The translations under genes and the position numbers were made by a program. Positions 9,996 through 43,763 of a DNA stretch of 64,000 nt are shown here, in pieces; positions within the stretch are counted from its first letter, which is position 1, and every line of letters starts with the position of its first letter. The notes under the pieces are model-generated. The model was not told the DNA's origin and made no database searches. It saw only the letters and a program-made list of their open reading frames with translations. Source of the stretch: an uncultured Pseudomonadota bacterium (GTDB taxonomy: Bacteria > Pseudomonadota > Gammaproteobacteria > Burkholderiales > JALYOK01); NCBI GenBank assembly GCA_963840785.1, contig CAWJAF010000003.1:23682-87681 (forward strand). The letters are read 5' to 3'.

Positions 9996-10001
9996 AGCGG
10001 C

Positions 10002-11160
10002 GTGAGTCCATTGCAGAAATATCGCCGCCGAATCACCGTGGTACGACTTATTTTCGCGCGGCGCGCGCGATTGGTTGCGTCATAACGAAAAAGTCCGCGA
10101 CGCCGTTAAACAAAGCCTGCCGGATCTGGTCAGCGGCCCCGATGCGCTAACGAATACACAAGATCGTACCGTCGTTGTACCAGTGAAATTATTGGAGCAC
10201 GCGCGCTTTCGTCTCGCCGATGCAGACGAGCAAACCGGCGTCGGACAGGGCAAAGGCGAACCCGGCGATATCTTGCGCCCAGGCCAAGATCCAGGCGGTG
10301 GCGACGAAACCGGACAAGGCGGCAACGGCCAAGGCGAATTCCAATTAGCGATGGAATTTCAAATGGACGAAATCGTCGATTGGTTGTGGGAAGAATTAAA
10401 GTTACCGGATCTCAAGCCAAAACAAAGTCCGTCGCTTAACGAAGCAGACTGGGTGCGCGAAGGCTGGGATAAGCATGGCCCGCGCGCGCGCCTGGATCGG
10501 CGCCGTACGATGAAAGAAGCAATTAAGCGCCGCGCCGTGCAACCGGGTGCTGCGCCATTCACCAACGACGATTTGCGCTTTCGCCAAATCACGCAAAAGC
10601 CGAAACCGTCAAATCATGCCGTGGTTATTTTCGGCTTGGATGTTTCCGGCAGCATGGCGGAAACCCAGCGCAAACTCGCCAAGACATTTTTCTTTTTCGC
10701 CTTGCAAGGCGTGCGCCGCGAATATGCGCACGTCGAAACGGTATTCCTCGCCCACACCGACGATGCCTGGGAATTTTCCGAGCAGGAATTTTTTAAAGCC
10801 AGCGGAACAGGTGGCACCGTCGCTTCGTCGGTGTTTCGCTTGAGCCTGGATATTTTCAATGACCGCTTCGCTGCCAATCGCTATAACCGTTACTTGTTTT
10901 ACGCTTCCGACGGTGAAAATTTTCGCGAGGATCGCACGCCCGCGACCGCGTTGCTGACCGAGCTGGCGCAACAAATCAACTACATCGGCTATGCGCAAAC
11001 CGGCATGATCGGCCCCGGCGCGGCACAAACGGAACTCGCACAAATTGCGAGTGAACTGCAACGCGAAGGCTTGCCGATCAGTTACGCCTATCTATCGCGC
11101 CACGAAGATATTTGGAATGCGATTCGGACGTTTTTTCAAGAGCAGGCAGCCGCCGCGTGA
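10002..11160 (+). CDS. yeaH: YeaH/YhbH (DUF444) family protein; the 5' end needs a frame change or a non-canonical start
   Basis: Body ORF 10075..11160 (TTG start) carries RHNEKVRDAVKQSLPDLV, a Gly-rich acidic loop and a vWA-like VVIFGLDVSGSM. The conserved-looking WYDLFSRGARDWL lies in frame upstream of the TTG but has no ATG/GTG/TTG; an in-frame TGA sits at 10003-10005. A GTG at 10002 in the neighbouring frame reads MSPLQKYRRRIT. Confidence 0.8.
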
Positions 11161-12530
11161 CGACACTAAATTCGTATGCCGAGCAAATCGAAGCACTGGC
11201 GCAAAAGTTGGGCCTCGACTATTATGCCGTCGATTTCGAAATGGCGCCGCCGAGTTTCATGTTGGAAATTGCGTCGTACGGCCTGCCCGTGCGCATGCCG
11301 CACTGGTCGTTCGGCGTGCGCTACATCCATCAGATGATTCGCCAAACTATGGGCCACTCGCACATTTTCGAAGTGATGTTTCCAGGCGATCCGTGCCATG
11401 CGTATTTGGTCAACACCAACTCCATGGCGGAGAATGCGTTGGTCACCGCGCACGTGTTGGGTCACGCGGATTTCTCGAAAAATAATCAACTGTTCGCACG
11501 GCATCAAGAGATGGCGGGCGGCCATATTTTGGAACAAGCGGCGGCGCATGCGAATCGTATCGAACAAGCATTCGCCAAACATGGCATCGCAAAAGTAGAA
11601 GCTGTGATGGACGCCGCGCTGGCGCTCGAACCGCACGTCGACACGAATCACGATCTACATCGCGCGCGCTACGCCGCAAAAGCAATCAAGCCAGAAGCCG
11701 CACCACAAGCCGAGTTTCAGGCACGCTTTGCCACGTTGCCCGGTGGGAGCGGCGTTTCACGCGCCCTGCCCGCAGCACCACTCCCCATGGCTGTTCCACC
11801 GCATGCCGAATATGATTTGCTGTGGTTCATCGCCAACTATGCGCCCGAGTTGGACGAATGGGAACGCGATATTTTTCTCGCCGTGCGCGAAGAATCATTT
11901 TATTTTTATCCTGTGTTCGCGTGCCAAATTATGAACGAAGGATGGGCATCTTACTGGCACGCGCGACTGTTGCGGGAAGCGGATTTTCTGCCGCAAGAAT
12001 TGTATTTGAGCGCGATCAAAGCCCACTCCGATGTCGTGCGCCCGATCGCCGGCGAACAGCAAATCGCGCTCGCAGTGAATCCGTATCACTTAGGTTTCTC
12101 GATGTGGGAACACATCGTCGAGGAACAAGGCATCGACGCTGCGCGTCGCATTTGCCGCGAAGAAGACGACTTCGGATTTGTTCGCAATCATTTGAATGCC
12201 GATCTCGCCGACAAGCTAGGACTGTTCGTTTACCAAGCCAAACAAGACGGCGAAGTCAAAGTGCTGAACCGCGACATCAACGCCGTGCGCGAATCGATCA
12301 TAGGCAATAAATTCAACTACGGCTCGCCGCGCATCGCCGTTACGGAAATGAAAAATGACGGCAGCTTAGTATTGAAACACGATCACGGCGATGATGGTCG
12401 CGGCTTGGACATCGAGCGTGCGAATCAAGTGTTGAAATATGTCGCGCGCGTTTGGCGGCGGCCAGTTACGCTGCAAACGGTCGATGCCAAAGGTCAGCCA
12501 CGAGAACTAAGCGCAAATCGATCCCATTAA
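11157..12530 (+). CDS. spoVR: SpoVR/YcgB family protein
   Basis: GTG 11157 overlaps the yeaH stop (GTGA). LPVRMPHWSFG, AHVLGHADF and NEGWASYWHARLL are SpoVR hallmarks. Confidence 0.9.
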   Translation: MTTLNSYAEQIEALAQKLGLDYYAVDFEMAPPSFMLEIASYGLPVRMPHWSFGVRYIHQMIRQTMGHSHIFEVMFPGDPCHAYLVNTNSMAENALVTAHVLGHADFSKNNQLFARHQEMAGGHILEQAAAHANRIEQAFAKHGIAKVEAVMDAALALEPHVDTNHDLHRARYAAKAIKPEAAPQAEFQARFATLPGGSGVSRALPAAPLPMAVPPHAEYDLLWFIANYAPELDEWERDIFLAVREESFYFYPVFACQIMNEGWASYWHARLLREADFLPQELYLSAIKAHSDVVRPIAGEQQIALAVNPYHLGFSMWEHIVEEQGIDAARRICREEDDFGFVRNHLNADLADKLGLFVYQAKQDGEVKVLNRDINAVRESIIGNKFNYGSPRIAVTEMKNDGSLVLKHDHGDDGRGLDIERANQVLKYVARVWRRPVTLQTVDAKGQPRELSANRSH

Positions 12531-12787: not shown

Positions 12788-13066
12788 ATGGAATTTGAGT
12801 GGGACGCCAAATAAGCCGCTTCGAATCTTCGTAAACACTATGTGAGTTTTGAAGACGCCGCTCGAGTATTCCTTGATCCGAACCGTATCGAAACTTTCGA
12901 CGGTCGAGATGCCTACGGCGCAGATCGCTGGAAAACCGTAGGTCTGGTCGAGCCCGCTTTGTTGGCCGTTGTTTACACCATTCGCGGCAATGACGGCGAG
13001 ATTATTCGATTGATATCAGCCAGAAAGGTAGATGCCCATGAGCGCGCGCAATACCGTGAAGTTTAA
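12788..13066 (+). pseudogene. brnT: BrnT-type (DUF497) ribonuclease toxin with an in-frame TAA at codon 9
   Basis: ATG 12788 reads MEFEWDAK-TAA(12812-12814)-AASNLRKHYVSFEDAARVFLDPNRIETFD... in a single frame. The ORF track only picks up the GTG restart at 12842. Confidence 0.7.
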
Positions 13067-13355
13067 ACTAGACCCCAAGAAACCGGTTCCGTTGAGCACT
13101 GCGCAACAAAAGCGTCTGGCTGTCGTGGCAGCCATGCCGGATACCGACATTAGCTACAGCGATATTCCGCGGCAACAAGGTGCGATCCAATGGAAAAGGC
13201 CGGGCGCCTTGGTGTCCTCTGAAAATAAGCAACAGGTCACGCTACGACTGGATGCGGATGTATTGAGTTTCTTTAAAGAAACCGGCAAGCGTTATCAAAG
13301 TCGGATTAACGCGGCGTTACGTGAGTACGTCAAAGCGCACCGTAAATCGGCGTAG
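13038..13355 (+). CDS. brnA: BrnA-type antitoxin (C-terminal RHH/CopG-like)
   Basis: Overlaps the toxin 3' end. QVTLRLDADVLSFFKETGKRYQSRINAALREYV is the BrnA signature as I recall it. ATG 13038 sits 9 nt after AAAGG. Confidence 0.75.
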   Translation: MSARNTVKFKLDPKKPVPLSTAQQKRLAVVAAMPDTDISYSDIPRQQGAIQWKRPGALVSSENKQQVTLRLDADVLSFFKETGKRYQSRINAALREYVKAHRKSA

Positions 13356-13777
13356 ATACGAGATAGCCTTCCCCCATTGCCCGAGCTGAACTCGACCTCC
13401 CGCGCCCGGCGGAGCGTCAACTATTGGGCGCCTAGATCAGTTCCAGCGGCGGCTTTGTAGCAACTTTCCAAATCGAGCTGTATGTCTGCAAAGCTGCCGA
13501 CTGGCGACGTCCTTTTGCACCGCATCAGACGGAAATTGGCTGTCGTTGCCTGATAACAGGAAATTTTGCATAGCTTTTGAATAGCTGCTTTGAAGATTAA
13601 TGTCCGATCCGATTTCTACAATTTATTGCGTTTCGCTTTGATGCTTGAATTCAAGGGAGATGCGGGTTGAATCCAAACCATTTCTCCGATGGCCTAATAT
13701 CTAACCCTCCAGATGCTTGAAAGTGCCCGTCCTGCTTGCCGCTTAAGGCATGTCCATTGTTCGCCTAACACATCAGC

Positions 13778-13807
13778 TTGCCAGGTGATACTTAGTTGCG
13801 CTAGAGT
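13778..13807 (+). promoter_or_regulatory. Candidate sigma70-type promoter for the monooxygenase operon
   Basis: TTGCCA (13778-13783), an 18-nt spacer, then TAGAGT (13802-13807), about 100 nt upstream of the pmoC-like ATG. Read by eye only. Confidence 0.25.
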
Positions 13808-13834
13808 GCCAGTATTGCTTTGTAATTCAATTTG

Positions 13835-13855
13835 TTGTGTTGCGTCGCAACACAA
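13835..13855. promoter_or_regulatory. Perfect 10-bp-arm palindrome in the pmoC-like leader (operator or 5'-UTR hairpin)
   Basis: TTGTGTTGCG-T-CGCAACACAA, 55 nt upstream of ATG 13910. Confidence 0.4.
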
Positions 13856-13909
13856 ACGCAAGTTACCAAAGCAAACGACGCAATAATTAATCTTCCTGAG
13901 GAGAAGTTC

Positions 13910-14707
13910 ATGTCGATTGCAGCAACAAGTCTAATAGGCGGATCGGCCCAAGCTGGCGCGGAACGTCAAGCGGGGCACTACGTAAAATTCAATCTATTTC
14001 TATTGACGATCGCGCTATTGACGATCATGTTCGTCTGTTATCGCCTTTATCAGCAAGCTTACGGCTGGTCGGCAGGGCTGGATGTGACGCAACCGGAATT
14101 CGAAAAATATTGGATGACCTTAGTGAAGATACAGTTGCCGGTGCTATTCGGACTGTCTGCTCTATGCTGGGGTTACCTCTGGGTGACACGCGAACGCAAT
14201 ATGGCGGCACTGGATAAACGCGTTGAGCTGCAGCGCTACTTCACCTTTACCATGTGGTTGGTCGCCTACACGTTCGCGGTCTATTGGACGACGAGTTTTT
14301 TTGGCGAAGGCGATGGCGTATGGCACCAAACCGTTATTCGCGATACCAGCTTCACTCCGAGCCATGTCGTGCTGTTCTATGCCTGCATACCCACCTACAT
14401 TTTCTTCGGCGTCGGTAGCTTTATTTACGCTATGACACGTTTGCCGGCCTTCTCCAGAGGCATTTCTGTCGCTCATGTCCTTGGAGTGCTTGGGCCTTTC
14501 CTAATTTTGCCTAACCTTGGATTCAACGAATGGGGGCATGCCTATTGGCTCACAGAGGAAATTTTCTCCCATCCGCTGCACTGGGGATTCGTAGTGCTAG
14601 GCTGGAACGCCCTCGCCCTGCCGGGCGTCGCGATACAGATTTTGCAACGCTTAATCGTACTGTTCCGCGATTTGTTCGGCGTAACGATTGCGAAAGCCTC
14701 GCAGTAG
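13910..14707 (+). CDS. pmoC: Copper membrane monooxygenase subunit C (PmoC/AmoC family)
   Basis: GEGDGVWHQTVIRDTSFTPSH (Asp/His/His metal-site stretch) and EEIFSHPLHWGFV are family hallmarks. SD GAGGAG lies 6 nt before ATG 13910; the ORF-track TTG at 13832 is probably too far upstream. Confidence 0.9.
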   Translation: MSIAATSLIGGSAQAGAERQAGHYVKFNLFLLTIALLTIMFVCYRLYQQAYGWSAGLDVTQPEFEKYWMTLVKIQLPVLFGLSALCWGYLWVTRERNMAALDKRVELQRYFTFTMWLVAYTFAVYWTTSFFGEGDGVWHQTVIRDTSFTPSHVVLFYACIPTYIFFGVGSFIYAMTRLPAFSRGISVAHVLGVLGPFLILPNLGFNEWGHAYWLTEEIFSHPLHWGFVVLGWNALALPGVAIQILQRLIVLFRDLFGVTIAKASQ

Positions 14708-14788
14708 ACTAAATACGCGCCGCATTGACGGCGCGAAAATTACAAATGCGTGGGCGCAATGCCCGCGCAAAAAAACTAGGAGGAGAAA

Positions 14789-15601
14789 ATGTTAGCGATC
14801 AATCGACAAGTGCTTGATGCATCCGGCTTGCCACCCGAGGCTGCGCGCCTTTCCCGTATCTGGGAATGCTTCGTTGTAGCTGGGGTAATCCTTCTGTTCA
14901 TGGGCGCTATTCATTTGCATGTGTTGCTCACAGTCGGCGACTGGGATATGTTTATCGATTGGAAGGATCGCCAGTATTGGGTGTTGGTCACGCCGGTCTC
15001 GATGATCATGATTCCCGTCGCGCTGCAAGCGGTGTTCTGGCATTACTTTCGCTTGCCGATCGGCGCAACCGTCGGCGCCGTCGTGTTGTTTCTTGCGACC
15101 TGGATAACGCGGTACGTTGGGTGGCACCTATGGGGCCATTTCCCGTTTAGCATGAACATCCCAGCGACAATGCTGGCCGGGGCGTTGGCCTTGGACGCGA
15201 TCCTGTTGATTGTGCGTAATCCGTTACTCGTGGCAACTTTCGGCGGTTTTGCCTTCGCCATGCTGTTCTACCCGAGTAACTATGCATCGCTAGCACCTTA
15301 TTACGTGCCGATCGAGCATCAGGGCATGATCGCCTCCGCTGCCGATATGATCGGCTATGTGTTTCCGCGCGCCGGTACGCCCGAGTACATCCGCATTATC
15401 GAGCGCGGCACGCTGCGAACATTTGAAGGTACCTCGGTTTGGGTATCGACCGCATTCGCCGGATTCATTTGTATTTTCATGCATATGATTTGGTGGCGTA
15501 TCGGGATCGCATTCTCGACGCAAAAATTTGTGCCTACCTCCAAGGGAATAAAGGCCATGATGGGTTTACACGACGACAAGCCCGTCCCACAAGCTAGCTA
15601 G
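14789..15601 (+). CDS. pmoA: Copper membrane monooxygenase subunit A (PmoA/AmoA family)
   Basis: GDWDMFIDWKDRQYWVLVTP and RAGTPEYIRIIERGTLRTF are hallmarks. Multi-TM protein. SD AGGAGGAG. Confidence 0.9.
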   Translation: MLAINRQVLDASGLPPEAARLSRIWECFVVAGVILLFMGAIHLHVLLTVGDWDMFIDWKDRQYWVLVTPVSMIMIPVALQAVFWHYFRLPIGATVGAVVLFLATWITRYVGWHLWGHFPFSMNIPATMLAGALALDAILLIVRNPLLVATFGGFAFAMLFYPSNYASLAPYYVPIEHQGMIASAADMIGYVFPRAGTPEYIRIIERGTLRTFEGTSVWVSTAFAGFICIFMHMIWWRIGIAFSTQKFVPTSKGIKAMMGLHDDKPVPQAS

Positions 15602-15611
15602 AGAAAACGCC

Positions 15612-16874
15612 ATGATAAAGAAATTATTCTGTGCGGTGCTAGCACTGCTAACGCTTGCGTTCGTCCCCGAGCAACCTGCCGAAGCGCACGGTGAGCGTGC
15701 GCAGGAACCCTACCTGCGTACCCGCACCGCCCATTGGTATGACGTAAAATGGACGGCTCAATCCGTCGGCGTTAACCAAGACCTAATCGTCTCCGGCAAA
15801 TTCCGATTGTTCAGCGATTGGCCCGACGCGGTTGACCTACCCGCAACCGTTTTCGTTAGCAATGCGACGCCAGGGCCGGTTTTCGCGCGCGTCGAATCGT
15901 CTCTCAACGGCGTGCCGGCAAGGCAATCGTTTCGCGATCTGGAGATTGGCCGCGACTACGAATACAAAATGGTTTTGCGCGGGCGGGTGCCTGGGCGCTA
16001 TCACGTTCACCCGATGATCGCAGTGAAAGGTTCCGGCCCGCTCGTCGGTCCCGGTGCGTGGGTTGATATTACCGGAAACGAAAAAGACTTTAAGTTTCCG
16101 ATGCAAGCGATTTCCGGCGAAGTTATCGAAGACTTGCAAACCTGGGGCGTAAGAAACGCGGTGACTTGGCAAGTGATGTGGTTTGTAATCGCGGCAGCGT
16201 GGCTGATTTGGTGGTTGCGAAGGCCGTTGTTGATTCCGCGTTATTTAGTTTTGCAAAAAGGCCGCGAAGATTTGTTGATCACAAAACTCGATCTTAAAGT
16301 CGCGGTGGTGCTGTTATTAGGCGTGGTCATCCTCGCCTTTGGAAGTTATAACTGGGCAAGCAATCAGTGGCCGAAAACCGTGCCGCTACAAGCGGGCACG
16401 ATGAAGACACCGCCATTACCGTTTGAACGCTCGCCCGTGAATGTCGTCGTTAAGGAAGCCCTCTACGACGTGCCCGGTCGATCAATGCGTGTGGCCATGA
16501 GCGTCAACAATATCAGCGACAAGCCTCTACGAATCGGGGAATTTGCGACCGCGAGTTTGCGCTTCGTCAACGGCAATCTGGACGTCGCGAAGGCCAATGT
16601 CGACCCGAATTTTCCGCGCGAGTTAGTGGCTCGCAAAGGTTTAATATTAAGTGACGATAGCGTCATCGAACCCGGCCAAACCAAGGAAATCAAGTTCGAG
16701 GCAACCGATGCCGCTTGGGAAATCGAGCGATTGACCAGCTTTCTGACCGACGTCGACAGCAAGTTCGGCGGATTGTTGTTTTTATTCGACAACATGGGCA
16801 AACGCTATATCGCGGAAATTGGAGCGCCCATTTTGCCCGTGTTTCGCGACGTAAAGCTCGCGGCAAATAATTGA
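15612..16874 (+). CDS. pmoB: Copper membrane monooxygenase subunit B (PmoB/AmoB family)
   Basis: Signal peptide ending AEA, then HGERAQEPYLRTRTAHWYDVKW. GRYHVHPMIAV gives the HxH motif. Two internal TM helices and a C-terminal cupredoxin-like region. Confidence 0.9.
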   Translation: MIKKLFCAVLALLTLAFVPEQPAEAHGERAQEPYLRTRTAHWYDVKWTAQSVGVNQDLIVSGKFRLFSDWPDAVDLPATVFVSNATPGPVFARVESSLNGVPARQSFRDLEIGRDYEYKMVLRGRVPGRYHVHPMIAVKGSGPLVGPGAWVDITGNEKDFKFPMQAISGEVIEDLQTWGVRNAVTWQVMWFVIAAAWLIWWLRRPLLIPRYLVLQKGREDLLITKLDLKVAVVLLLGVVILAFGSYNWASNQWPKTVPLQAGTMKTPPLPFERSPVNVVVKEALYDVPGRSMRVAMSVNNISDKPLRIGEFATASLRFVNGNLDVAKANVDPNFPRELVARKGLILSDDSVIEPGQTKEIKFEATDAAWEIERLTSFLTDVDSKFGGLLFLFDNMGKRYIAEIGAPILPVFRDVKLAANN

Positions 16875-17458
16875 TGTTGGTTCGTCGAGGCGAGTGCCGC
16901 TGGCTGCTTTGTGCACTCGCCTTTCTGGCAACATTTGGCATAACGAGCGCTAACGCCCACGGCGGCCTAGCAATGGACGCCGACTTCTGCAAATTGCGTG
17001 TCGGCCGCTACCTCATGCATTTTGTTGGTTATCAACCGGATAGCTCGAACGCGACCAAAGAGTTCTGCGAAGACATTCCGGAAACCGGCGCGACGATCAT
17101 CGTGCTCGATTATATTGATGACGCCTTGCGCGATCTCCCGACGGAAGTTCGGGTGATTCGGGATACGGGTGACGAATCGAATCTCGAGGCCGTAAGCGTG
17201 TTTCATTTGCCCGCGAAGGTCTATCCCAGCGGTTCGCTTTCTCTCGAACATAATTTCAAGGAAGGTGGCCGCTACGTCGGCTTGGTCACCGTCCATGGGC
17301 CGGAGAAATACGTGTCGCGGTTCCCTTTTTCCGTGGGCAAGCCTAGCTTTAAGTGGCTGCAAATTGTCGGCGCCATTGTGGTGATAGCAGCCGGAGCGGC
17401 GCTGTATTGGTTTGCGCAGCGACAGCGTGCCCGTCAAACGGGACGTGGAGCCGCGTAG
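16874..17458 (+). CDS. Anchored periplasmic protein with PmoD/AmoD-like architecture (signal peptide, ~140-aa domain, C-terminal TM)
   Basis: ATG 16874 overlaps the pmoB TGA (TGATG). Signal peptide ends SANA/HGG. FCKLRVGRYLMHF is a Cys...Met-His cluster. C-terminal helix WLQIVGAIVVIAAGAALYWF followed by an RQRARQ patch. Homology to PmoD is not verified. Confidence 0.5.
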   Translation: MLVRRGECRWLLCALAFLATFGITSANAHGGLAMDADFCKLRVGRYLMHFVGYQPDSSNATKEFCEDIPETGATIIVLDYIDDALRDLPTEVRVIRDTGDESNLEAVSVFHLPAKVYPSGSLSLEHNFKEGGRYVGLVTVHGPEKYVSRFPFSVGKPSFKWLQIVGAIVVIAAGAALYWFAQRQRARQTGRGAA

Positions 17459-18304
17459 ATTCCAAGCGCGATTCGATGTTTCGCACTGACGTTTCTTGCG
17501 TGCGTTATATCGGCCTGCAGTGATAGCGATCAAATAAATCACACCATTCAGCCTGCCAACTTCACATACACTGGCGATGAGCGGGATGGTCACTGCGATC
17601 CCAAGCTCAAGCCAGGGCGCGGCGGTCTAACAAACGGCGAACGTAGTGCGAAAGGCGTTCGCTATAACGTCCGCGCGCCGCTAAATTACGATCCGACCCA
17701 TCGCCACGGACTGATCATGGTTTACGCCCCCGCCGCAACAAGCGCCGTACAAACCGAACGGCTGATGCATTTCACGCAACAGGCAACAGGTGCCGGATTC
17801 ATTGTCGCCTACGCGGATCATGTAACGCTCGGGTTGCCCGCTGCGCGAGAACTCGCAACGATTCCACAGCGCATAAGCGAAAAATGGTGCGTCGACGCGA
17901 AACGGATTTTTCTGACCGGGCATTCCGATGGCGGAACCATATCGCATATCGCGTCATTGCTACCCGAGAATCGCGATACCGTTCAAGGCATTGCGCCAAG
18001 CGCCGCCGGTGTTGTCGCCGCCGATCTGCAAACCTACGGATGCCGTAAGCCCTCGCCGGTGTTGATTATGCATAGCAAAAACGATTCGTTGTTTGCAGGT
18101 TTCGGCACCCAAACTGCGCAATGGTGGGCGCACTGTAATCGCTGCGACATCACCCGGAAGGAACCTTTAGCAAATGGCTGTATTGCGTATCAGGGATGCG
18201 CCACCGGAGCGCCAACATGGTATTGTGAAGGCGACGCTGGTCATCGCACTTGGCCGGACAGAAATGGGACGCTAATCGATTTTTTCGGCAAACAAATGAA
18301 CTGA
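17459..18304 (+). CDS. Lipoprotein alpha/beta-hydrolase esterase (PHB-depolymerase/LpqC-like), probably ATT-initiated
   Basis: ORF track starts at 17717, but the frame is open from 17459 and reads (I/M)PSAIRCFALTFLACVISAC/SDSD, a lipoprotein signal with lipobox ISAC. GGAG lies 8 nt before ATT 17459. Nucleophile elbow GHSDGG and C-terminal GDAGHRTWP. Confidence 0.65.
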   Translation: MPSAIRCFALTFLACVISACSDSDQINHTIQPANFTYTGDERDGHCDPKLKPGRGGLTNGERSAKGVRYNVRAPLNYDPTHRHGLIMVYAPAATSAVQTERLMHFTQQATGAGFIVAYADHVTLGLPAARELATIPQRISEKWCVDAKRIFLTGHSDGGTISHIASLLPENRDTVQGIAPSAAGVVAADLQTYGCRKPSPVLIMHSKNDSLFAGFGTQTAQWWAHCNRCDITRKEPLANGCIAYQGCATGAPTWYCEGDAGHRTWPDRNGTLIDFFGKQMN

Positions 18305-18312
18305 CCATATCT

Positions 18313-18705
18313 ATGAATTTTCGACTAACTGCGGTTATTAATCGAATTCTGATCGCCTGCATTGTGACCCTGTCGCTGCTCAGCGCTAGCGAATCTTACG
18401 CCCACGCAAAGCTGGTCAAATCCGATCCTGGGCGCCGCGCTGTGATCAAAACATCACCGAAAGAAATTCGCCTTTGGTTTAACGAGAAACTCGAGGCGGC
18501 CTATTCCTCCGCGACGTTATCCGAAGGCAGCGGAAAAACGATAGCCACCGCGCCAGCGACCATTACCAACGACGATCCAAAGCGCATGACTCTCACTATC
18601 GATAAACTTCTGCCCGGTGTCTACCGCGTTAAATATCGCGTTCTATCGGTCGACGGCCATGTAGTGGACTCTAGCTTCACGTTCACCGTCCAACCGGCGC
18701 AATGA
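18313..18705 (+). CDS. copC: CopC-domain periplasmic copper-binding protein
   Basis: Signal peptide ends SYA, then HAKLVKSDPGRRAVIKTSPKEIRLWFNEKLE...YRVLSVDGHVVDSSFTFTV, the classic CopC fold signature with an N-terminal His. Confidence 0.85.
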   Translation: MNFRLTAVINRILIACIVTLSLLSASESYAHAKLVKSDPGRRAVIKTSPKEIRLWFNEKLEAAYSSATLSEGSGKTIATAPATITNDDPKRMTLTIDKLLPGVYRVKYRVLSVDGHVVDSSFTFTVQPAQ

Positions 18706-20648
18706 TCGAATGGGTCGGCCCCATTGCGCGTTGGCTGCATCTAATTTCCGGCGCACTCGCGTTCGGCGCCATGTGGTGGCTCACGCGCGGGACATTAACG
18801 GCGAACCGGCAAAATAATATTTGGCGCAGCCTGCCATGGCTACTGATATTGTTTATTGGCACGGCGCTCGTCGTGCTTGCCGGCCACACGGCCCAGGCGC
18901 TGGGCACAACAGGTTTTTCGATCAGCCTCAGCGAAGTTTCAAGGTTCGCATTTCAAACCCAATTTGGAAATGTTTGGTTGGGTCGCCTGATCGTCGCAGC
19001 GCTCCTGCTGATTTATTTGTTTGCCACTCGTTCACGCGCAGTAATCGCCACACTCATTGTCGTTGGCATTTTGCAGGCTTCGCTCGCGCTCGCAGGCCAC
19101 GGCGTGGCATCGGACGCGCCCATTCTGGCGCAAGTTTGCCATGCCGCTCATGTGCTCGCAGCGAGCGCTTGGCTCGGCGGACTGGCAACAATGCTCAGTG
19201 GAATGGCCACAACCCGGTTGTTGGATAACGTGACGCGCTCAGCGAAAGACATGCGTGTGTTTTCCGAATTCGCCCTGTCCTGCATGATCGTCATCGTGAT
19301 GAGCGGCATCGCGATTGCCGCGCTGCAAATTCAGAGTTGGCCTGGACTATTCGGAACCAATTACGGCGAACGATTACTCATTAAAATCGCGTTACTGCTT
19401 GCCGCGCTCGCGATTGCCGCACATCTGCGTTGGCGCACCCTCAAGACGATTGATGTAAGCCTCGCCGACCCGACAAAACGCCGCAACCTCGCGCAATGGC
19501 TTGCCGTTGAGCTCATTTTCGCCATTGCCATTATCTGGATGGCCGCATCCCTCGCCGTCACACCACCCGCGCAACACGAGCAAATCAACTGGCCCTTCGC
19601 ATTTCGAATTGCGCCGGAGGTGACCTGGCCGAAACCAGATCTGCAAGCGCAATTCTGGTGGGGCCTGGCGATCATTGCGGCAGGTATTGCTTGGATGGGG
19701 TGGTCCTGGCGACAATTCGGCCTGCATCGGCGCGACGTCCTTCTCGGCATTGCCGTTGCCGGACTGGGCGTTTGGATTGCCATTCCGGCACTGAGCGTCC
19801 CGGCTTTTCCGGATACCTATCGACGCAGCAGCGTGCCTTACCAATCCATTTCAATCGGCCAAGGCCAGCGCCTCTTCGCGCAACATTGCGTGAACTGCCA
19901 CGGCATCGATGCCACCGGCAATGGCGCGCTGGCGAAAAGTCTGCCGAAGCCGCCGGCCGACCTGACCGCACCCCATACTGGCGATCACACTGCCGGCGAT
20001 ATGTTCTGGTGGCTGACGCACGGCATGGCCAACACCGGTATGCCCGCGTTTCCGCAACTGAGCGAAGAAGATCGTTGGGACCTGGTGAATTTCGTACACA
20101 CCCTGGCCACCGGCTACGAAGCACGTGTCATTCGCGAACGCATCGTGCCCATGCGCCCATGGTTAGGGGCGCCGGATTTCAACTATGTCGCGAATGATGG
20201 CTCGAGCGGTTCGCTAAAACACTTTCGCGAACGAGGATCGGTCTTGTTGATACTATTCAGCGAGAAATCCAGCGCACGGCTCGAACAACTTAGCGAAGTC
20301 AGTTCAACGCTTGCTAAATTCCGCACTCAGATCATCGCCGTTCCGCTAGAATCTGCACCCATATCGACGACAAAGTTTGCGTTTCCCATCATCTCCGAAG
20401 GCGGCGAAGACATTGCACGTAGTTACCAGTTACTGCGCCGAACCATCGAGAATCCTCGATTGGGCGAGCGAGCGCCGCGACCGACTCACATGGAGTTTCT
20501 GATCGATCGCTATGGGTACCTGCGTGGGCGCTGGTTGCCCGAGGACACCGAGCCCGGCTGGCGCGACAAGCGCAATCTAGTTGCTCAAGTGGAACAACTC
20601 GCACGCGAACCGCGCGTTAAACCGCCGCCAGACGAACACTTACATTAA
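18702..20648 (+). CDS. copD: CopD-family membrane protein fused to a mono-haem cytochrome c domain and a ~190-aa C-terminal domain
   Basis: ATG overlaps the copC stop (ATGA). About 10 TM segments of CopD type. Then QRLFAQHCVNCHGIDATGNG...HGMANTGMPAF (CxxCH plus Met). The tail GSVLLILFSEKSSARLEQL looks thioredoxin-fold-like but has no Cys pair. Confidence 0.8.
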   Translation: MIEWVGPIARWLHLISGALAFGAMWWLTRGTLTANRQNNIWRSLPWLLILFIGTALVVLAGHTAQALGTTGFSISLSEVSRFAFQTQFGNVWLGRLIVAALLLIYLFATRSRAVIATLIVVGILQASLALAGHGVASDAPILAQVCHAAHVLAASAWLGGLATMLSGMATTRLLDNVTRSAKDMRVFSEFALSCMIVIVMSGIAIAALQIQSWPGLFGTNYGERLLIKIALLLAALAIAAHLRWRTLKTIDVSLADPTKRRNLAQWLAVELIFAIAIIWMAASLAVTPPAQHEQINWPFAFRIAPEVTWPKPDLQAQFWWGLAIIAAGIAWMGWSWRQFGLHRRDVLLGIAVAGLGVWIAIPALSVPAFPDTYRRSSVPYQSISIGQGQRLFAQHCVNCHGIDATGNGALAKSLPKPPADLTAPHTGDHTAGDMFWWLTHGMANTGMPAFPQLSEEDRWDLVNFVHTLATGYEARVIRERIVPMRPWLGAPDFNYVANDGSSGSLKHFRERGSVLLILFSEKSSARLEQLSEVSSTLAKFRTQIIAVPLESAPISTTKFAFPIISEGGEDIARSYQLLRRTIENPRLGERAPRPTHMEFLIDRYGYLRGRWLPEDTEPGWRDKRNLVAQVEQLAREPRVKPPPDEHLH

Positions 20649-20669
20649 TTTTTCACCTATGGATCAAAA

Positions 20670-21101
20670 ATGAAACTTTCGTCTCTTTGTAAAAATACCG
20701 CACTCGCGATTGCCACCGTGTTTGCGCTCAACGCCAGCAATGCGCAAGCCCACAGCGACGATTATTTCGATGCCAATCCGTCGCCTCACGGCGGCCAAGT
20801 TCGCATGTCCGGTGCCTATCATTTTGAATTGCTGATGGATGAAAAAGAAATCGTCGTTTACGTGACCGATCATGGCAATCAACCCATCGCCAGCACCGGC
20901 GCGACCGGGACGCTGGAGATTAAGACCGGAAGTAAAAAAACTGTTATTGAGCTTGCGCCCGGCGAGGGAAACATTCTCAAGGCGAACGCCCCTTGGCCGG
21001 GAACGCCGTCGCCGGATTTGAATGCGCAACTCAGCGTAACTTTCCCTAACAAAAAACCCGCCAAGGCAAAATTTACGCCGTTCGCGAAGCGACGTAAGTA
21101 A
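20670..21101 (+). CDS. Small secreted protein of unknown function (mature N-terminal His)
   Basis: Signal peptide ends AQA/HSDD. HGGQVRMSGAYHFELLMDEKEIVVYVTDHGNQP. Lys-rich tail. Confidence 0.6.
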   Translation: MKLSSLCKNTALAIATVFALNASNAQAHSDDYFDANPSPHGGQVRMSGAYHFELLMDEKEIVVYVTDHGNQPIASTGATGTLEIKTGSKKTVIELAPGEGNILKANAPWPGTPSPDLNAQLSVTFPNKKPAKAKFTPFAKRRK

Positions 21102-21199
21102 GCATCGCCAAGACGCGCTACCCGCTTGCTTCTCCAAGCAGACCATGCCAGCAGCCAACATCCATGGGCCTCCTGGCGAGAGTGGCCAAAGCAATGCGC

Positions 21200-21229
21200 T
21201 TGACACATTAGACTAGACTGTCTAGTCTA
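21200..21229 (+). promoter_or_regulatory. -35 box plus a perfect palindromic operator upstream of the TetR gene
   Basis: TTGACA (21200-21205) is followed by TAGACTAGAC-T-GTCTAGTCTA (21209-21229), ending 26 nt before the TTG start at 21255. Confidence 0.55.
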
Positions 21230-21254
21230 GCGACCGACACGTGAGGATAATTCG

Positions 21255-21872
21255 TTGGTTCGTCAAAAACAATCCGCTGAGCTAGAAACCATCAACGGCA
21301 GCAAGCGCAAACTGGTGTGCGATGCCGCCATTCGTGTGTTTATCGAAGACGGCTATAGCGCGAGCATGGAAAGCATTGCTGCGCGCGCCGGCGTCGCCAA
21401 GCAAACGCTGTACAACCAATTTGGCAACAAAGAAAGTTTGTTTGCAGAAGTGATTCGCCAGAGCGTCGACGATATTACTGTTTCGCTCGGCGAACCGAGC
21501 GCGGATTTGCGCCGCTCCTTGCTACGTTTCGCCGCGGCATTTCGTGCCAAGGCACTGTCGCCCTATGGACTGGGAATGCATCGCGCGCTGATTGCTCAGG
21601 CGCCAAGATTTCCAAAATTGGCGCGGATCGCCCACGAGAAAGGCGCCGCCAATGCGCGCGATACCCTCGCGAAATTTTTACAGCAAGCGATGGATACGGG
21701 AAAATTGCGCAAAACCGATTCGCAATTTGTCGCGGAGTTATTGCTCGGCATGCTCGCAGGCTTCGAGCGCGTACGCTTGTTGTACGGCGTCAAAACCGAT
21801 CCAACATCGCTGAATGAAAAACAGAAATGCGTTGCCATCGTTGATTGTTTTTTAAACGGTTTGGCAGCTTAG
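21255..21872 (+). CDS. TetR/AcrR-family transcriptional repressor
   Basis: N-terminal HTH KLVCDAAIRVFIEDGYSASMESIAARAGVAKQTLYNQFGNKESLF. TTG start preceded by GAGGAT. Confidence 0.85.
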   Translation: MVRQKQSAELETINGSKRKLVCDAAIRVFIEDGYSASMESIAARAGVAKQTLYNQFGNKESLFAEVIRQSVDDITVSLGEPSADLRRSLLRFAAAFRAKALSPYGLGMHRALIAQAPRFPKLARIAHEKGAANARDTLAKFLQQAMDTGKLRKTDSQFVAELLLGMLAGFERVRLLYGVKTDPTSLNEKQKCVAIVDCFLNGLAA

Positions 21873-21923
21873 GATTTAAAACTAAAGCGGTACAAAACAT
21901 AAATCGTTGAGGAGAAGTAGATC

Positions 21924-24900
21924 ATGCGTTCGTACATTGAATTTATCGTCAAATTTCGTTGGATTGTCATTGCGCTGGTTGCGGCAGCGACGATATTTTT
22001 GAGTATGCGTGGATCCTCCTTGACGGTGATTATCGATCCGAACAGCATTGTTCCCAGGTCGCATCCATTCGTTGCGACCACACTCAAAGTAGAAGAAGTC
22101 TTCGGTTCGCGTTACGTCGCGGTAATTGGCATTACACCGAAGACCGGCGACGTCTTTCAAAAAAGTGTGCTGGAAAAAGTTCAGCGCATCACCGCCGAAT
22201 TGCGTACAACGCCGCGCATCGTTAAAACCAATTTGCTATCAGTCTCGGCGCGCCGCGCGAAAGATATCGTCGGCACCGCAGAAGGCATGTCGGTAAAACA
22301 GATGATGACGGAAGTGCCGACAACGCCGGAAGGAATGGCCGAATTAAAAAAGGCATTACAGCGAAATACCGCCTACATGAATTCAGTCGTTTCGAACGAT
22401 TGGAAGACCATCACCATCCTTGCCGAAGTGCGCGACGCGAAGCCGGAAGAAAAGAAGTTAAAGATGGGCGGATTCTCATACATCGCCGCAAAGATTAATG
22501 CGATCGCCGATAAGGAAAGAGACGAAACCGTGGACATTGCGGTGACCGGCTATCCCGCGTTCTTGGCAATGATCGAGAAATATTCCGGGCGGATGAAATG
22601 GATGTTGCTCGCGGCACTAGTGATTATCGGTCTCATCCACTATGAGGCATTCCGCACCATTCAGGGTTTGATTCTGCCATTGCTCACGCCGCTCGTCGCG
22701 GTGGAGTGGAGTAAAGGCTTCATGGGATTGGCCGACGTGCCCCTTGATATTTTTAACATGTCGACGCCGATATTAATTTTAGCGGTCGGTGCCGGACACG
22801 CGGTGCAAATGTTGAAACGCTATTACGAGGAATATAACCGGCTCAATCCTAATCCGGAGCCCGCAGTCGGCCTGCCGCCGATTGCTGGAAGTACTTCGTC
22901 GAATCTGTTCGCATGGATCGGGATTTGGATTTTGTGCGCCCTTCCCTACGCATACTTCGCTTGGAACGGCGCGCCGGCTGGCCCTTGGATGCCCCTTTCT
23001 ATACTGCTTGCGTTGTTGCCGTGGATTTATTGCTATTGGATTCGTCCCTATAAGCTCGCCAGCGCGCAATCGATTCAAGCGAGCAGGCAAGCGGTTACCG
23101 ATTCGATCCTAAAGATCGGCCCGGTGATGATCACGGCCGGCTTGGTTGCCGCATGCGGATTTTTCTCGCTGTATGTGTTCGACATTATTTCAATCAAAGT
23201 GTTCGGCATATTCTCCGGGATCGGTATTCTGAGCGTGCTTATTGTCGAATTGACGCTCATTCCGGCGGTGCGCTCCGTGTTGCCCCCACCGCGCGAAAAA
23301 GAAGCCCGCATGGAACGTGAAGAGCGTTTCTGGGATCGCCTGACGAATTTCTATTCCAATACCTTGTTGGGCCCCAAACGTGATCGCATCTTTGTTGTCG
23401 CGGGTGTCGCCGTGATCATCGCCCTATTCGGCATGAACCGCCTCGCCGTTGAAAGTTCACTGAAAAAATACTTCGATCCGGAACTGCCGTTACTGCAAAG
23501 CGATGCTAAGCTGAACGAGCGCATGGCGGGCACGAATAACATTTATCTGTTGATCGAAGGTGACAAGGTCGATGCCATTAAAGATCCCGCCGTGTTAAAA
23601 GCGATGGATCAATTACAGGAATTCGTCGCCAAGCAACCGAACATCGGCAAGGTCATTTCGATCGCCGAATTCATTAAACGCATGAATCAATCGATGAATG
23701 GCGACGATCCCGCGTTCTTCAAAATTCCTGATAAGCAAGAAACCATCGCTGAATATCTGTTGCTTTATTCGATGTCGGGCGAGCCAGGGGATTTTGATCC
23801 CTATGTCGACTATGACTATCGCTTAGCCAATATGGTGGTATTCAGTCATAGCGACAGCACGTTAGAAATGCGTAAATTTTGGGAACAAACAAAAGCTTTT
23901 GCCGAGAAAACGTTCCCGCCGAACATCAAAGTGAACGTCGGCGGCAGCGTTGCGCAAAGTGCGGCGATTACCGAAGTGATTGTGAAGGATAAAATCCTGA
24001 ACGTTCTTCAGATCGCGTCAGTTGTGTTTGTGGTCGCGTCGTTGGTATTCCGTTCGCTGGCTGCGGGGCTGTTGGTCATTACGCCTTTGCTGCTCTCGGT
24101 AATCATTAACGTCGGCTTGATGGGCTTATTGGGCTTGCGCTTAAATGTTCCAACCGCGTTAACCTCCGCGCTCGCGATCGGCATCGGTGCCGACTATGCG
24201 ATTTATATGTTGTTCCGCCTGCGCGAAGAACTGGCCAAAGGCATCGACGAAGAACAAGCATTCCGTAACGTGATGCGCACCGCGGGAAAAGCCTGTTTGT
24301 TCGTTGCTTCTGCGGTCGCCGGTGGCTATGCGGTTCAGGCATTCTCGCGCGGCTACTATCCGCACACCTGGAACGCGCTATTGATTGGCACCGCGATGTT
24401 GGTCAGCGTAACGGCGGCGTTAACCGTTATGCCTGCGTTAGTTTTAAAATTCCGTCCTAAGTTTATTTTTAATGGAGCTAAAAATATGAAGTTATCCCCC
24501 GCTGCGGCTACTACAATTGCCGTTGCCGTTGTCGCCGTCTTGTCCTTTGGCCACACGAAATCCGCCTATGCGATCACGCCGGTCGAAATCATGGAGAAAA
24601 ACTTCATGGTTGCAAAAATCGCCGATACGACAACGCAGACCACGATGACCTTGACGAATAAATCGGGACAAAAGCGCGTGCGCAAAACTGCCGGCGTCAC
24701 CAAGCTCGAGCCGAATGGCATCGACAATAAGCGCATGACGCGGTTTCTTGAGCCGGCGGACGTGAAAGGCACGGTCTCATTGTTAAGCGAGCATTCGGAC
24801 AAAGACGACGATATTTGGATTTACCTGCCCAGCATCAAAAAAGTGCGCCGCCTCGTTTCCAGCAACAAAAAAGATAGCTTTGTCGGAACCGATTTTTCAT

Positions 24901-25298
24901 ACGGCGATGTGATCGGCCATAAGGTAAACGAATGGACTCACAAATTGATCAAGGAAGAAGACGTTGACGGTAAAATGGCCTATGTCATCGAATCCTTGCC
25001 GCGTGATGCGGCAATCAAAGCCAATTCGGGTTATTCAAAGCGCATGAATTGGATTCAAAAGGATAACTTCGTAACCCTCAAGGGAATGCAATACGACGAG
25101 GCGGGCGAATTGGTCAAGGAATCTCGCTTTGGGCGTTTCAGGAATGTCGATGCCGCTAAAGGCAAGTGGCTGACCGGCGAGCTAACAGTAAAAAATGTCC
25201 AAACCGAGCACACTACACACATTTATACTGACGATCTCAAATACAATATCGGCGTTAAAGACGATTACTTCACCACCCGTTACATGGAACAACAATAG
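21924..25298 (+). CDS. RND-superfamily (MMPL-type) exporter whose ORF continues in frame into a LolA-like domain
   Basis: 1124-aa ORF. The first ~850 aa has two 6-TM bundles with large periplasmic loops typical of MMPL/RND exporters. There is no stop before the LolA-like part. Confidence 0.8.
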   Translation: MRSYIEFIVKFRWIVIALVAAATIFLSMRGSSLTVIIDPNSIVPRSHPFVATTLKVEEVFGSRYVAVIGITPKTGDVFQKSVLEKVQRITAELRTTPRIVKTNLLSVSARRAKDIVGTAEGMSVKQMMTEVPTTPEGMAELKKALQRNTAYMNSVVSNDWKTITILAEVRDAKPEEKKLKMGGFSYIAAKINAIADKERDETVDIAVTGYPAFLAMIEKYSGRMKWMLLAALVIIGLIHYEAFRTIQGLILPLLTPLVAVEWSKGFMGLADVPLDIFNMSTPILILAVGAGHAVQMLKRYYEEYNRLNPNPEPAVGLPPIAGSTSSNLFAWIGIWILCALPYAYFAWNGAPAGPWMPLSILLALLPWIYCYWIRPYKLASAQSIQASRQAVTDSILKIGPVMITAGLVAACGFFSLYVFDIISIKVFGIFSGIGILSVLIVELTLIPAVRSVLPPPREKEARMEREERFWDRLTNFYSNTLLGPKRDRIFVVAGVAVIIALFGMNRLAVESSLKKYFDPELPLLQSDAKLNERMAGTNNIYLLIEGDKVDAIKDPAVLKAMDQLQEFVAKQPNIGKVISIAEFIKRMNQSMNGDDPAFFKIPDKQETIAEYLLLYSMSGEPGDFDPYVDYDYRLANMVVFSHSDSTLEMRKFWEQTKAFAEKTFPPNIKVNVGGSVAQSAAITEVIVKDKILNVLQIASVVFVVASLVFRSLAAGLLVITPLLLSVIINVGLMGLLGLRLNVPTALTSALAIGIGADYAIYMLFRLREELAKGIDEEQAFRNVMRTAGKACLFVASAVAGGYAVQAFSRGYYPHTWNALLIGTAMLVSVTAALTVMPALVLKFRPKFIFNGAKNMKLSPAAATTIAVAVVAVLSFGHTKSAYAITPVEIMEKNFMVAKIADTTTQTTMTLTNKSGQKRVRKTAGVTKLEPNGIDNKRMTRFLEPADVKGTVSLLSEHSDKDDDIWIYLPSIKKVRRLVSSNKKDSFVGTDFSYGDVIGHKVNEWTHKLIKEEDVDGKMAYVIESLPRDAAIKANSGYSKRMNWIQKDNFVTLKGMQYDEAGELVKESRFGRFRNVDAAKGKWLTGELTVKNVQTEHTTHIYTDDLKYNIGVKDDYFTTRYMEQQ
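24486..25298 (+). other. LolA-like 'outer membrane lipoprotein-sorting protein' module with its own SD, ATG and signal peptide, in frame with the RND ORF
   Basis: GGAG lies 8 nt before ATG 24486. MKLSPAAATTIAVAVVAVLSFGHTKSAYA/ITPVEIMEKNF. Also DIWIYLPSIKKVRRL and DGKMAYVIESLPRD...YSKRMNWIQKDNF. Confidence 0.7.
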
Positions 25299-25311
25299 CG
25301 ATTGGAGCCCT

Positions 25312-43548: not shown

Positions 43549-43763
43549 CCTTGCTCCTTGTACATGGAACCTCCAGTCCTATAACCAGCCGAGTGTGAGT
43601 TCGTTTATTTTTTGATTGACTGGACGGCTTGCTAAAAAGCCCATTACCCGGTTCCAACTCTTGTCAGAAAACCAAATACCTAGGTCAAACTTTTCGATTC
43701 ATTCACATTTATCGATTGCAATGATTAAGGGTGCGCAGTTAATACACCGCGCACCCTCGATTG

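Follow-up and report, generated by a model that had tools for sequence, protein, structure and literature searches.

Organization of the xmo locus

The window (the whole 64-kb stretch of DNA analysed) contains an operon with the order xmoCAB-D-orf195-copC-copD::cytochrome c, in which the genes for three CuMMO subunits are followed by xmoD, the gene of interest here. The features of the operon, numbered from the start of the window, are:

13910-14707, + strand: xmoC, CuMMO subunit C, 265 aa when started at the ATG (the form that gene callers use, in a frame already open at TTG 13832); Pfam AmoC, E = 4.6e-94; NCBIfam AmoC_BACT, 353.9 bits
14789-15601, + strand: xmoA, CuMMO subunit A, 270 aa; Pfam AMO, E = 2e-78
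15612-16874, + strand: xmoB, CuMMO subunit B, 420 aa, stop TGA 16872-16874; Pfam Monooxygenase_B, E = 3e-138
16874-17458, + strand: xmoD, AmoD-type PmoD-family gene, 194 aa, its ATG sharing one base with the xmoB stop
16874-16957, + strand: XmoD signal peptide, residues 1-28, predicted cleavage ANA/HGG
16958-17350, + strand: periplasmic cupredoxin-like domain, residues 29-159, predicted mature N-terminus His29 (16958-16960); from the 6CPD alignment (37-155), AlphaFold strands and Foldseek
16988-17020, + strand: metal motif C39-x8-M48-H49 (Cx8MH)
17066-17068, + strand: Cys65, the second invariant family cysteine
17351-17419, + strand: C-terminal transmembrane helix, residues about 160-182
17420-17455, + strand: basic cytoplasmic tail, following the transmembrane helix
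18313-18705, + strand: copC, 130 aa; Pfam CopC, E = 2.8e-22
18702-20648, + strand: copD, 648 aa, encoding a fusion of CopD with a cytochrome c domain and, C-terminally, with a weak thioredoxin-like (AhpC/TSA) domain; Pfam CopD 2.4e-19, Cytochrom_C 6.1e-15, AhpC-TSA 1e-3

The CuMMO encoded here belongs to a lineage of Burkholderiales/Rhodocyclaceae MAGs and is neither an AOB-type AMO nor a pMMO. XmoA does not reach the cut-off of either NCBIfam equivalog, AmoA_BACT (278 against 290) or CH4_NH3mon_ox_A, and shares 37-43% identity with the AmoA proteins of AOB and comammox and 62-82% with its homologues in Burkholderiales/Rhodocyclaceae MAGs; among the PDB matches to XmoB, AmoB and PmoB score alike. 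There is no hao or cycAB among the annotated ORFs of the window, and no second, AmoE-like PmoD-family gene in any of its six frames. Rfam gave no match anywhere in the window, and a promoter and terminator scan of 13300-21300 yielded nothing better than shuffled sequence, with no convincing terminator between xmoD and orf195. The latter, inserted between xmoD and copC, is esterase-like. PDB matches of orf143 to designed 'Pizza' proteins were rejected as repeat artefacts.

The xmoD reading frame

The xmoB TGA (16872-16874) and the xmoD ATG (16874-16876) overlap by one base in the sequence TGATG, just as an earlier sequence-only reading had described. A TTG at 16871 provides an alternative in-frame start; independent gene callers choose the ATG, which gives the 194-residue product. 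Because of this one-base overlap, and because no Shine-Dalgarno-like purine run lies upstream of the xmoD ATG, unlike those of xmoC (GAGGAG) and xmoA (GGAGGAG), translational coupling is plausible, and xmoD is probably translated in this way through its overlap with xmoB. The B and D genes of relatives are separated by anything from 0 to about 100 nt (approximate figures), with a similar TAATG only in locus L037; we therefore reject the overlap as a conserved family feature and do not regard coupling as a family requirement.

There are 818 homologues of XmoD at E <= 1e-3 in a set of 5.8 billion proteins, and 775 clusters in a 50%-identity library of 1.84 billion representatives, and xmoD is therefore not a chance ORF. 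The antisense ORF at 16967-17593 is a shadow of it.

Architecture of the XmoD protein

The signal peptide, called from its n/h/c regions and the AxA rule as read off the sequence, has the n-region MLVRRGECR, the h-region WLLCALAFLATFGI and the c-region TSANA/H, with alanine at -3 and -1. The A-x-A/HGG junction is aligned in 118 of the 120 closest homologues, and the signal peptide ending SANA/HGG that had been proposed earlier is well supported. In proteomics of PmoD homologues, peptides from the signal peptide are absent (Fisher et al. 2018, PMC6189053).

One transmembrane segment is present at about residues 160-182 (19-residue Kyte-Doolittle mean of 1.7-1.95), followed by QRQRARQTGRGAA, and the AlphaFold model has a helix at 161-193, so that hydropathy and model agree with the single C-terminal helix and basic patch of the sequence-only reading. 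The soluble part noted there is also present, although it is beta-rich and about 130 residues long and not about 140. Its strands (40-154) are modelled at pLDDT of about 80-88, with a moderate mean pLDDT of 75 for the whole protein; the N-terminal segment 23-34 is modelled at pLDDT < 50, so that the modelled placing of His29 relative to Cys39 and His49 is unreliable.

XmoD is a PmoD-family protein

A phmmer search of the PDB matches XmoD to PmoD (6CPD) with E = 3.2e-24 and 88.8 bits, aligning query residues 37-155 with chain residues 4-128. The top Foldseek matches of the AlphaFold model are 6cpd_B and 6cpd_A, with E of about 1e-10 (best 6e-11), a target-normalised TM score of 0.78 and 38-41% identity; the next matches, to the copper proteins CrdA and CopC, are about seven orders of magnitude weaker. 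With the PmoD/AmoD family XmoD shares sequence similarity, two invariant cysteines, signal peptide, C-terminal transmembrane helix, fold and linkage to a CuMMO, and it is a member by true homology, beyond matching topology. The sequence-only reading, which had proposed a PmoD/AmoD-like anchored periplasmic protein following the CuMMO B subunit, is thus better founded than it supposed: three of the checks that it suggested, by sequence search, by fold comparison and by co-occurrence of D genes with CuMMO operons in other genomes (see below), all turned out in its favour.

Its fallback was that XmoD might be an analogous, undescribed accessory subunit, a non-homologous protein that mimics PmoD topology. 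Pfam and NCBIfam both lack a model of the PmoD/AmoD family and no family in either matches XmoD, so that standard annotation calls it hypothetical; sub-threshold matches on its transmembrane helix (PsbX, Rv1476, TcpD) were rejected as hydrophobic-segment noise. The sequence and structural matches to PmoD nevertheless refute this explanation, to which we give practically no weight, and the protein falls in a subclass that has already been described.

That subclass is defined by the motif Cx8MHxnC, the class annotated as amoD in AOB and mostly tied to amo/pmo operons, with Nitrosomonas europaea NE0941 listed as an in-operon example (Fisher et al. 2018, PMC6189053). XmoD carries the motif, and its periplasmic domain shares 54-62% identity with the AmoD proteins of Nitrosospira, Nitrosovibrio and comammox Nitrospira, more than with the AmoE copy of the same beta-AOB loci (29-35%). 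We conclude that XmoD is an ordinary member of the AmoD (orf5) subclass and no new kind of accessory subunit, the name AmoD being based on orthology rather than on function.

The metal motif and the question of CuA

The full motif of XmoD is C39-KLRVGRYL-M48-H49...C65, and the cluster reads FCKLRVGRYLMHF. C39 aligns with PmoD Cys41, H49 with His51, and C65, within EFCEDIP (EYCDEIP in PmoD), with Cys65. In an alignment of 26 diverse homologues C39, H49 and C65 never vary and M48 occurs in at least 90% of sequences, and Cx8MH is found in 110 of the 120 closest homologues. The Cys...Met-His cluster and the second cysteine picked out by eye are thus Cys39/Met48/His49 and Cys65. In the phmmer alignment to 6CPD, Leu47 of XmoD takes the position of PmoD Met49 and the methionine is shifted by one residue, to C+9, so the ligand set of the Cx7MxHxnC proteins (Cys41, Met49, His51) is not found in XmoD.

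The predicted mature N-terminal histidine ('H1'), which hardly varies within the family, precedes the first cysteine by nine residues. Its conservation is not new, since H1 is already a scored column in Supplementary Data 2 of Fisher et al. (PMC6189053), and none of the papers searched joins PmoD with 'histidine brace'. Our alignment shows that the recombinant 6CPD construct begins downstream of this histidine.

These features bear on whether XmoD is a CuA-type electron-transfer protein, in which two anchored monomers would hold a Cys-bridged mixed-valent Cu2 and pass electrons to the monooxygenase. A Cys-bridged CuA has been shown in the Methylocystis PmoD dimer (Fisher et al. 2018, PMC6189053), and XmoD is homologous to that protein and keeps its Cys and His ligands. 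Moreover, a CuA-like site has been modelled in N. europaea AmoD/AmoE by Musiani et al., the Cx8MHxnC class lies outside those assayed in vitro by Fisher et al. (PMC6189053), and the neighbouring CopD carries a fused cytochrome c domain. Nonetheless, the methionine ligand is displaced in XmoD, and M49A abolishes CuA in PmoD. Cx7MxHxnC proteins (alpha-methanotroph PmoD and AmoE) are the only subclass shown to form CuA, and Fisher et al. (2018, PMC6189053) restrict CuA formation to them; three other motif classes bind copper with no CuA features, and the in vivo form may be other than CuA. A CuA role for XmoD thus seems unlikely.

Linkage of D genes in related loci

Wherever a related proteobacterial xmo/amo locus has enough flanking sequence (22/53), the D gene lies directly 3' of xmoB; the best D identity among related loci on genome contigs is 73%, and two Bradyrhizobium loci (L023 and L038) have the arrangement xmoCAB-D-orf195 with D 54% identical. 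A copC gene is present no more than 3.6 kb downstream of D in 63 of 66 related loci, and full-length CopD::cytochrome c homologues come after copC in AOB, comammox and xmo loci. In comammox loci CAB is a few kb away and the D genes sit with copCD.

The excess of linkage to copC over linkage to xmoB could indicate that XmoD acts with CopCD in general periplasmic copper homeostasis or resistance and has no specific link to a monooxygenase, and the next structural neighbours, CrdA and CopC, are copper-resistance proteins. We consider this very improbable, as the family is nearly confined to CuMMO-bearing genomes (98.5% of 860 sequences; Fisher et al. 2018, PMC6189053), the number of clusters recovered is far below expectation for a general copper-resistance protein, and xmoD overlaps xmoB here.

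A second alternative is that XmoD belongs to the CuMMO complex as a stoichiometric structural subunit, that its C-terminal helix packs on XmoC and that it mainly stabilises the enzyme. Tight and probably coupled expression with XmoB would fit, the membrane anchor itself is conserved, and the idea has been raised in the literature for an unassigned helix beside PmoC/AmoC. Native-membrane structures, however, tie that helix to small ORFs (46 residues in N. europaea and 23 residues in Methylocystis sp. Rockwell), the comammox D genes adjoin copCD and not CAB, and the transmembrane sequence is poorly conserved in the family alignment compared with the periplasmic domain. We regard a structural role as improbable, if somewhat less so than a general copper role.

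A proposed role for XmoD

The best overall explanation, to which we assign a probability of roughly 85%, is that XmoD is an AmoD-subclass copper protein serving the adjacent xmoCAB. XmoD would be exported by its Sec signal peptide, cleaved at ANA/H, and held in the inner membrane by the single C-terminal helix with its basic tail in the cytoplasm, which would place the cupredoxin-like beta-sandwich (about 130 residues) in the periplasm. Copper is most likely bound there by Cys39, Met48 and His49, possibly with Cys65 and the N-terminal His29. XmoD would then serve XmoCAB, most probably in copper acquisition, loading or maintenance, with CopC and CopD::cytochrome c as putative partners, and is probably not a CuA electron-transfer centre. 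Both the predicted copper binding and the presumed lack of CuA are extrapolated from the tested classes of PmoD homologues (Cx7MxH, Cx8M, Cx9H and CxnC), all of which bound copper in vitro; deletion of pmoD in Methylosinus trichosporium OB3b leads to a copper-dependent growth defect (PMC6189053).

A broader and rather doubtful proposition is that AmoD (Cx8MH), CopC and CopD::cytochrome c form one substrate-independent copper-supply module, common to proteobacterial and Nitrospira CuMMOs and moving separately from xmoCAB. It is suggested by the frequency of D-copC linkage together with the higher identity to AOB and comammox counterparts of D than of XmoA. The conserved N-terminal histidine is a third pointer: since the 6CPD construct starts after it, in vitro work could have overlooked a native copper site there, such as an amino-terminal His site of the kind seen in CopC.

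The literature has described the family since 2018, including the Cx8MHxnC subclass, its place in the operon and its presence next to CuMMOs of unknown function. The practical point is an annotation gap: as neither Pfam nor NCBIfam has a model, PmoD/AmoD genes are labelled 'hypothetical' in every MAG, and they will keep being rediscovered. The presence of a conserved AmoD-type gene beside a CuMMO of this lineage adds support for the view that D serves the copper enzyme and not a particular substrate, and heterotroph-like hosts might be easier systems in which to study AmoD function.

Comparison with known systems

PmoD of Methylocystis sp. Rockwell (Met49242_1452, 6CPD) resembles XmoD in its cupredoxin-like domain, both cysteines and the histidine ligand, signal peptide and C-terminal transmembrane helix, and is likewise encoded directly 3' of the B subunit. 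It differs in having Cx7MxHxnC and a homodimeric CuA, whereas XmoD is Cx8MH with leucine at the methionine ligand position, and its crystal-site residues Met42 and Met44 correspond to Lys40 and Arg42 in XmoD. AmoE (orf4) of betaproteobacterial AOB (NE0942) shares the family, topology, N-terminal AHG and location immediately 3' of amoB, and is set apart by its Cx7MxHxnC motif and its low identity to XmoD.

PmoD-family proteins of Bradyrhizobium sp. ERR11 and Skermanella aerolata, which are neither nitrifiers nor methanotrophs, have Cx8MHxnC like XmoD, and the PmoD catalogue of Fisher et al. (2018, PMC6189053) marks the ERR11 protein as encoded within a CuMMO operon. Bradyrhizobium is of another host order, and the Bradyrhizobium loci that we retrieved lack adjacent copCD.

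The closest counterpart is AmoD (orf5) of AOB (NE0941, and the Nitrosospira, Nitrosovibrio and comammox Nitrospira copies). The host CuMMO here is not an AOB-type AMO, as the XmoA identities indicate, orf195 lies between D and copC, and no AmoE (orf4) copy separates B from D, an arrangement shared with the amoCABD of gamma-AOB. XmoD and these AmoD proteins nonetheless have in common Cx8MHxnC, the A/HGG mature N-terminus, length and topology, and in the AOB and comammox AmoD loci, as at xmoD, copC and then copD::cytochrome c are found downstream.

The D gene encodes a homologue of PmoD

The ORF directly downstream of xmoB, a subunit gene of a copper membrane monooxygenase (CuMMO), is an ordinary member of the PmoD/AmoD family, of AmoD type and so far unannotated, and we refer to it as the D gene.

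Genes of the xmoCAB-D run
13910-14707, + strand: xmoC, CuMMO subunit (Pfam AmoC, E = 5e-94)
14789-15601, + strand: xmoA, CuMMO subunit (Pfam AMO, E = 2e-78)
15612-16874, + strand: xmoB, CuMMO subunit (Pfam Monooxygenase_B, E = 3e-138)
16874-17458, + strand: D gene, 194-aa ORF directly after xmoB
17717-18304, strand not given: orf195, 195 aa, GHSDG nucleophile-elbow motif
18702-20648, + strand: copD::cytochrome c, 648 aa, mono-haem cytochrome c domain and weak thioredoxin/AhpC-like C-terminal domain
20670-21101, strand not given: orf143, secreted protein of 143 aa

The A of the D-gene ATG is the last base of the xmoB TGA stop (TGATG), and on four metagenome contigs with an identical protein, gene callers working independently chose this start too. 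Inspection of the sequence found no purine-rich ribosome-binding site upstream of the ATG; GAGGAG precedes xmoC and GGAGGAG precedes xmoA. We reasonably infer that translation of D would be coupled to that of xmoB. The protein reads as a typical Sec signal peptide ending ANA/HGG, a soluble part of ~130 residues, and a single hydrophobic helix (~160-182) followed by the basic tail QRQRARQTGRGAA. The sequence-only reading had described the overlap, this topology with its basic patch, and the placement of Cys39, Met48, His49 and Cys65, all of which we find; only the length of the soluble part, put at ~140 residues, needs correcting.

Pfam and NCBIfam contain no family for the D protein, and its relatives are therefore named hypothetical in their sources; sub-threshold matches in these databases covered the TM helix only and were rejected. 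Homology to PmoD is unambiguous. A phmmer search of PDB sequences aligned residues 37-155 with 6CPD, the soluble domain of PmoD from Methylocystis sp. Rockwell (E = 3.2e-24). An AlphaFold2 model built with 26 homologues (mean pLDDT 75; 80-88 in the beta core) has 6CPD chains B and A as its best Foldseek PDB matches (E ~1e-10, 38-41% identity, TM 0.78 normalised to the target), and the next matches, the copper proteins CrdA and CopC, are ~7 orders of magnitude weaker. All four family features of Fisher et al. 2018 (PMC6189053) are present: the protein has a signal peptide, two invariant cysteines in its periplasmic domain and a TM helix at the C-terminus, and the genome encodes a CuMMO. The initial guess of a PmoD/AmoD-like anchored periplasmic protein of a CuMMO operon was correct. 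Homology to PmoD had not been recognised by eye, and an analogous, undescribed accessory subunit had been considered; that idea is refuted, because the phmmer and Foldseek matches and the family features make homology clear.

The neighbouring monooxygenase and conserved gene order

Judged by sequence comparison, the xmoCAB enzyme is neither a canonical AMO of the type found in ammonia-oxidising bacteria (AOB) and comammox nor a pMMO. XmoA falls under the NCBIfam equivalog cut-offs for both AmoA_BACT and CH4_NH3mon_ox_A, and for XmoA and XmoB, matches to solved chains of AMO and of pMMO are of similar strength. XmoA is 37-43% identical to AmoA of AOB and comammox, 47-53% to homologues of Bradyrhizobium, Sterolibacterium and other MAGs, and 62-82% to its nearest relatives, in Burkholderiales, Rhodocyclaceae and 'Betaproteobacteria' MAGs. 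Alkane-oxidising CuMMOs of Betaproteobacteria were reportedly described by Rochman et al. in 2020. The annotated ORFs of the 64-kb window include no hao or cycAB; the rest of it, with PrkA/YeaH/SpoVR, TRAP transporters, DsbD and ApbE, looks like DNA of a heterotrophic proteobacterium. CuMMOs of unknown function are known in Bradyrhizobium sp. ERR11 and Solimonas (PMC6215863). The Fisher dataset holds Cx8MHxnC proteins of Bradyrhizobium sp. ERR11, flagged in a CuMMO operon, and of Skermanella (PMC6189053), and an AmoD-type gene beside such a CuMMO is therefore already catalogued.

The gene order is xmoCAB-D-orf195-copC-copD::cytochrome c-orf143, and its core is found again across relatives. Among loci with enough flank, copC lies <=3.6 kb downstream of D in 63 of 66, and the B subunit gene is directly upstream in 22 of 53; D co-occurs with CuMMO operons in other genomes too. 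Loci without B at this position are mainly those of comammox Nitrospira, with CAB a few kb past copCD. In the CopD fusion the CxxCH region falls near residues 387-468; AOB, comammox and xmo loci have the full-length architecture after copC (34-48% identity over ~670 aa).

The orf195 product weakly resembles PHB-depolymerase/feruloyl-esterase-type alpha/beta hydrolases over their C-terminal two-thirds (NCBIfam 2e-7, PDB 4e-3), with no signal peptide evident. Of the fetched loci, most of the non-AOB xmo ones (Burkholderiales and other MAGs, Bradyrhizobium, Sterolibacterium) have a homologue (38-53%) beside D, and no AOB or comammox locus does; orf195 may be a lineage-specific accessory gene. The orf143 product matches nothing in Pfam or NCBIfam and nothing meaningful in the PDB; its mature form is predicted to start with His as well (AQA/HSDDY), and a second PHGG is present. 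Homologues (31-52%) come after copD in several loci of beta-AOB (Nitrosomonadaceae, Nitrosovibrio) and in other xmo loci, and the amo/xmo neighbourhood could, with orf143, include a further uncharacterised copper protein of the periplasm.

Immediately downstream of the copper cluster, 21255-26691 encodes a TetR regulator, an MMPL/RND-type transporter fused to a LolA-like/DUF1329 domain (1124 aa in all), and a DUF1302 outer-membrane-type protein. Such gene sets are elsewhere tied to the handling of hydrophobic compounds, and this one might be a hint that the CuMMO acts on a hydrocarbon. Upstream of the operon are a PrkA/YeaH (DUF444-like)/SpoVR-like trio (8043-12530), the latter two named from reading their translations, and a small gene pair (12842-13355), by appearance a putative toxin-antitoxin pair. 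Two large proteins of secreted or surface type (644 and 799 aa; 41614-47155, minus strand) carry repeated ASH/Cep192-D4/HYDIN-type Ig-like domains (DUF1573-like).

AmoD-type motif and proposed role

In the alignment with 6CPD, Cys39, His49 and Cys65 correspond to Cys41, His51 and Cys65; Leu47 occupies the Met49 position and a methionine comes one residue later, so that the motif is Cx8MHxnC. Fisher et al. assign this class, 13.4% of the family, to AmoD/orf5 of AOB, and Cx7MxHxnC to AmoE/orf4 of AOB and to the PmoD encoded within alpha-methanotroph operons; both are predominantly operon-associated, and in the table of that study N. europaea NE0941 is an in-operon Cx8MHxnC protein and NE0942 a Cx7MxHxnC protein (PMC6189053). 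The 120 closest homologues of the D protein comprise 110 Cx8MH and 10 Cx9H proteins. By tblastn against 80 loci from GTDB species genomes, it is 54-62% identical to AmoD of Nitrosospira, Nitrosovibrio, Nitrosomonadaceae and comammox Nitrospira, and only 29-35% to AmoE in those beta-AOB loci. On sequence grounds it is an AmoD-type orthologue, and no second PmoD-family gene was found within the window. Comammox Nitrospira loci (L016-L079) have up to three PmoD-family paralogues in tandem before copCD: one AmoD-type Cx8MH (A/HGG), one Cx8MH with another N-terminus (AQAQHTHE), and one Cx9H (AAAHGS...C-x9-H).

At long range the D protein is better conserved than XmoA (54-62% versus 37-43%), and at short range the order is reversed (65-73% versus 62-82%). 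Stronger constraint might account for this pattern, as might the transfer of a D-copCD module on its own.

At the predicted mature N-terminus, 9 residues ahead of the first Cys, stands a His that is invariant in the alignment; it is present in 118/120 closest homologues, in about 115/129 aligned distant representatives and in AmoE. The conservation of this His is not new, the position having been scored as 'H1' by Fisher et al. (PMC6189053). The 6CPD chain begins ~3 residues before Cys41 in the alignment and therefore lacks this His; it might contribute to a native copper site, a possibility to which we assign a low probability.

The analysis shows the homology of the D protein, the class of its fold and motif, its topology signals and the linkage of its gene. 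Beyond this, we propose that the D protein would be exported, cleaved before His29, anchored by its C-terminal helix in the inner membrane so as to face the periplasm, and bind copper at the N-terminal Cys/Met/His cluster in support of the neighbouring CuMMO. A CuA electron carrier would be an alternative, and among the classes tested by Fisher et al. (Cx7MxHxnC, Cx8M, Cx9H, CxnC) the purple CuA centre formed in Cx7MxHxnC proteins alone, while Cx8M, Cx9H and CxnC representatives bound copper without CuA features (PMC6189053). The close association with CopC and CopD::cytochrome c and the absence of a Met49-type ligand both speak against such a carrier, which we give low weight, and for these reasons we favour a probable role in copper acquisition or loading. 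A single in vivo observation exists for the family: deleting pmoD in M. trichosporium OB3b causes a growth defect that depends on copper (PMC6189053). A structural subunit of the CuMMO also receives low weight, as does a general copper-resistance protein; a 2026 AMO review sees no strong evidence for assigning the extra helix of pMMO and AMO structures to PmoD/AmoD.

The motif subclass and its occurrence beside CuMMOs of unknown function were thus catalogued already (Fisher et al., PMC6189053), and the D gene adds an unannotated AmoD-type member to a family without a Pfam or NCBIfam model. It differs from PmoD of Methylocystis sp. Rockwell at the Met49 ligand, in place of which the D protein has Leu47.
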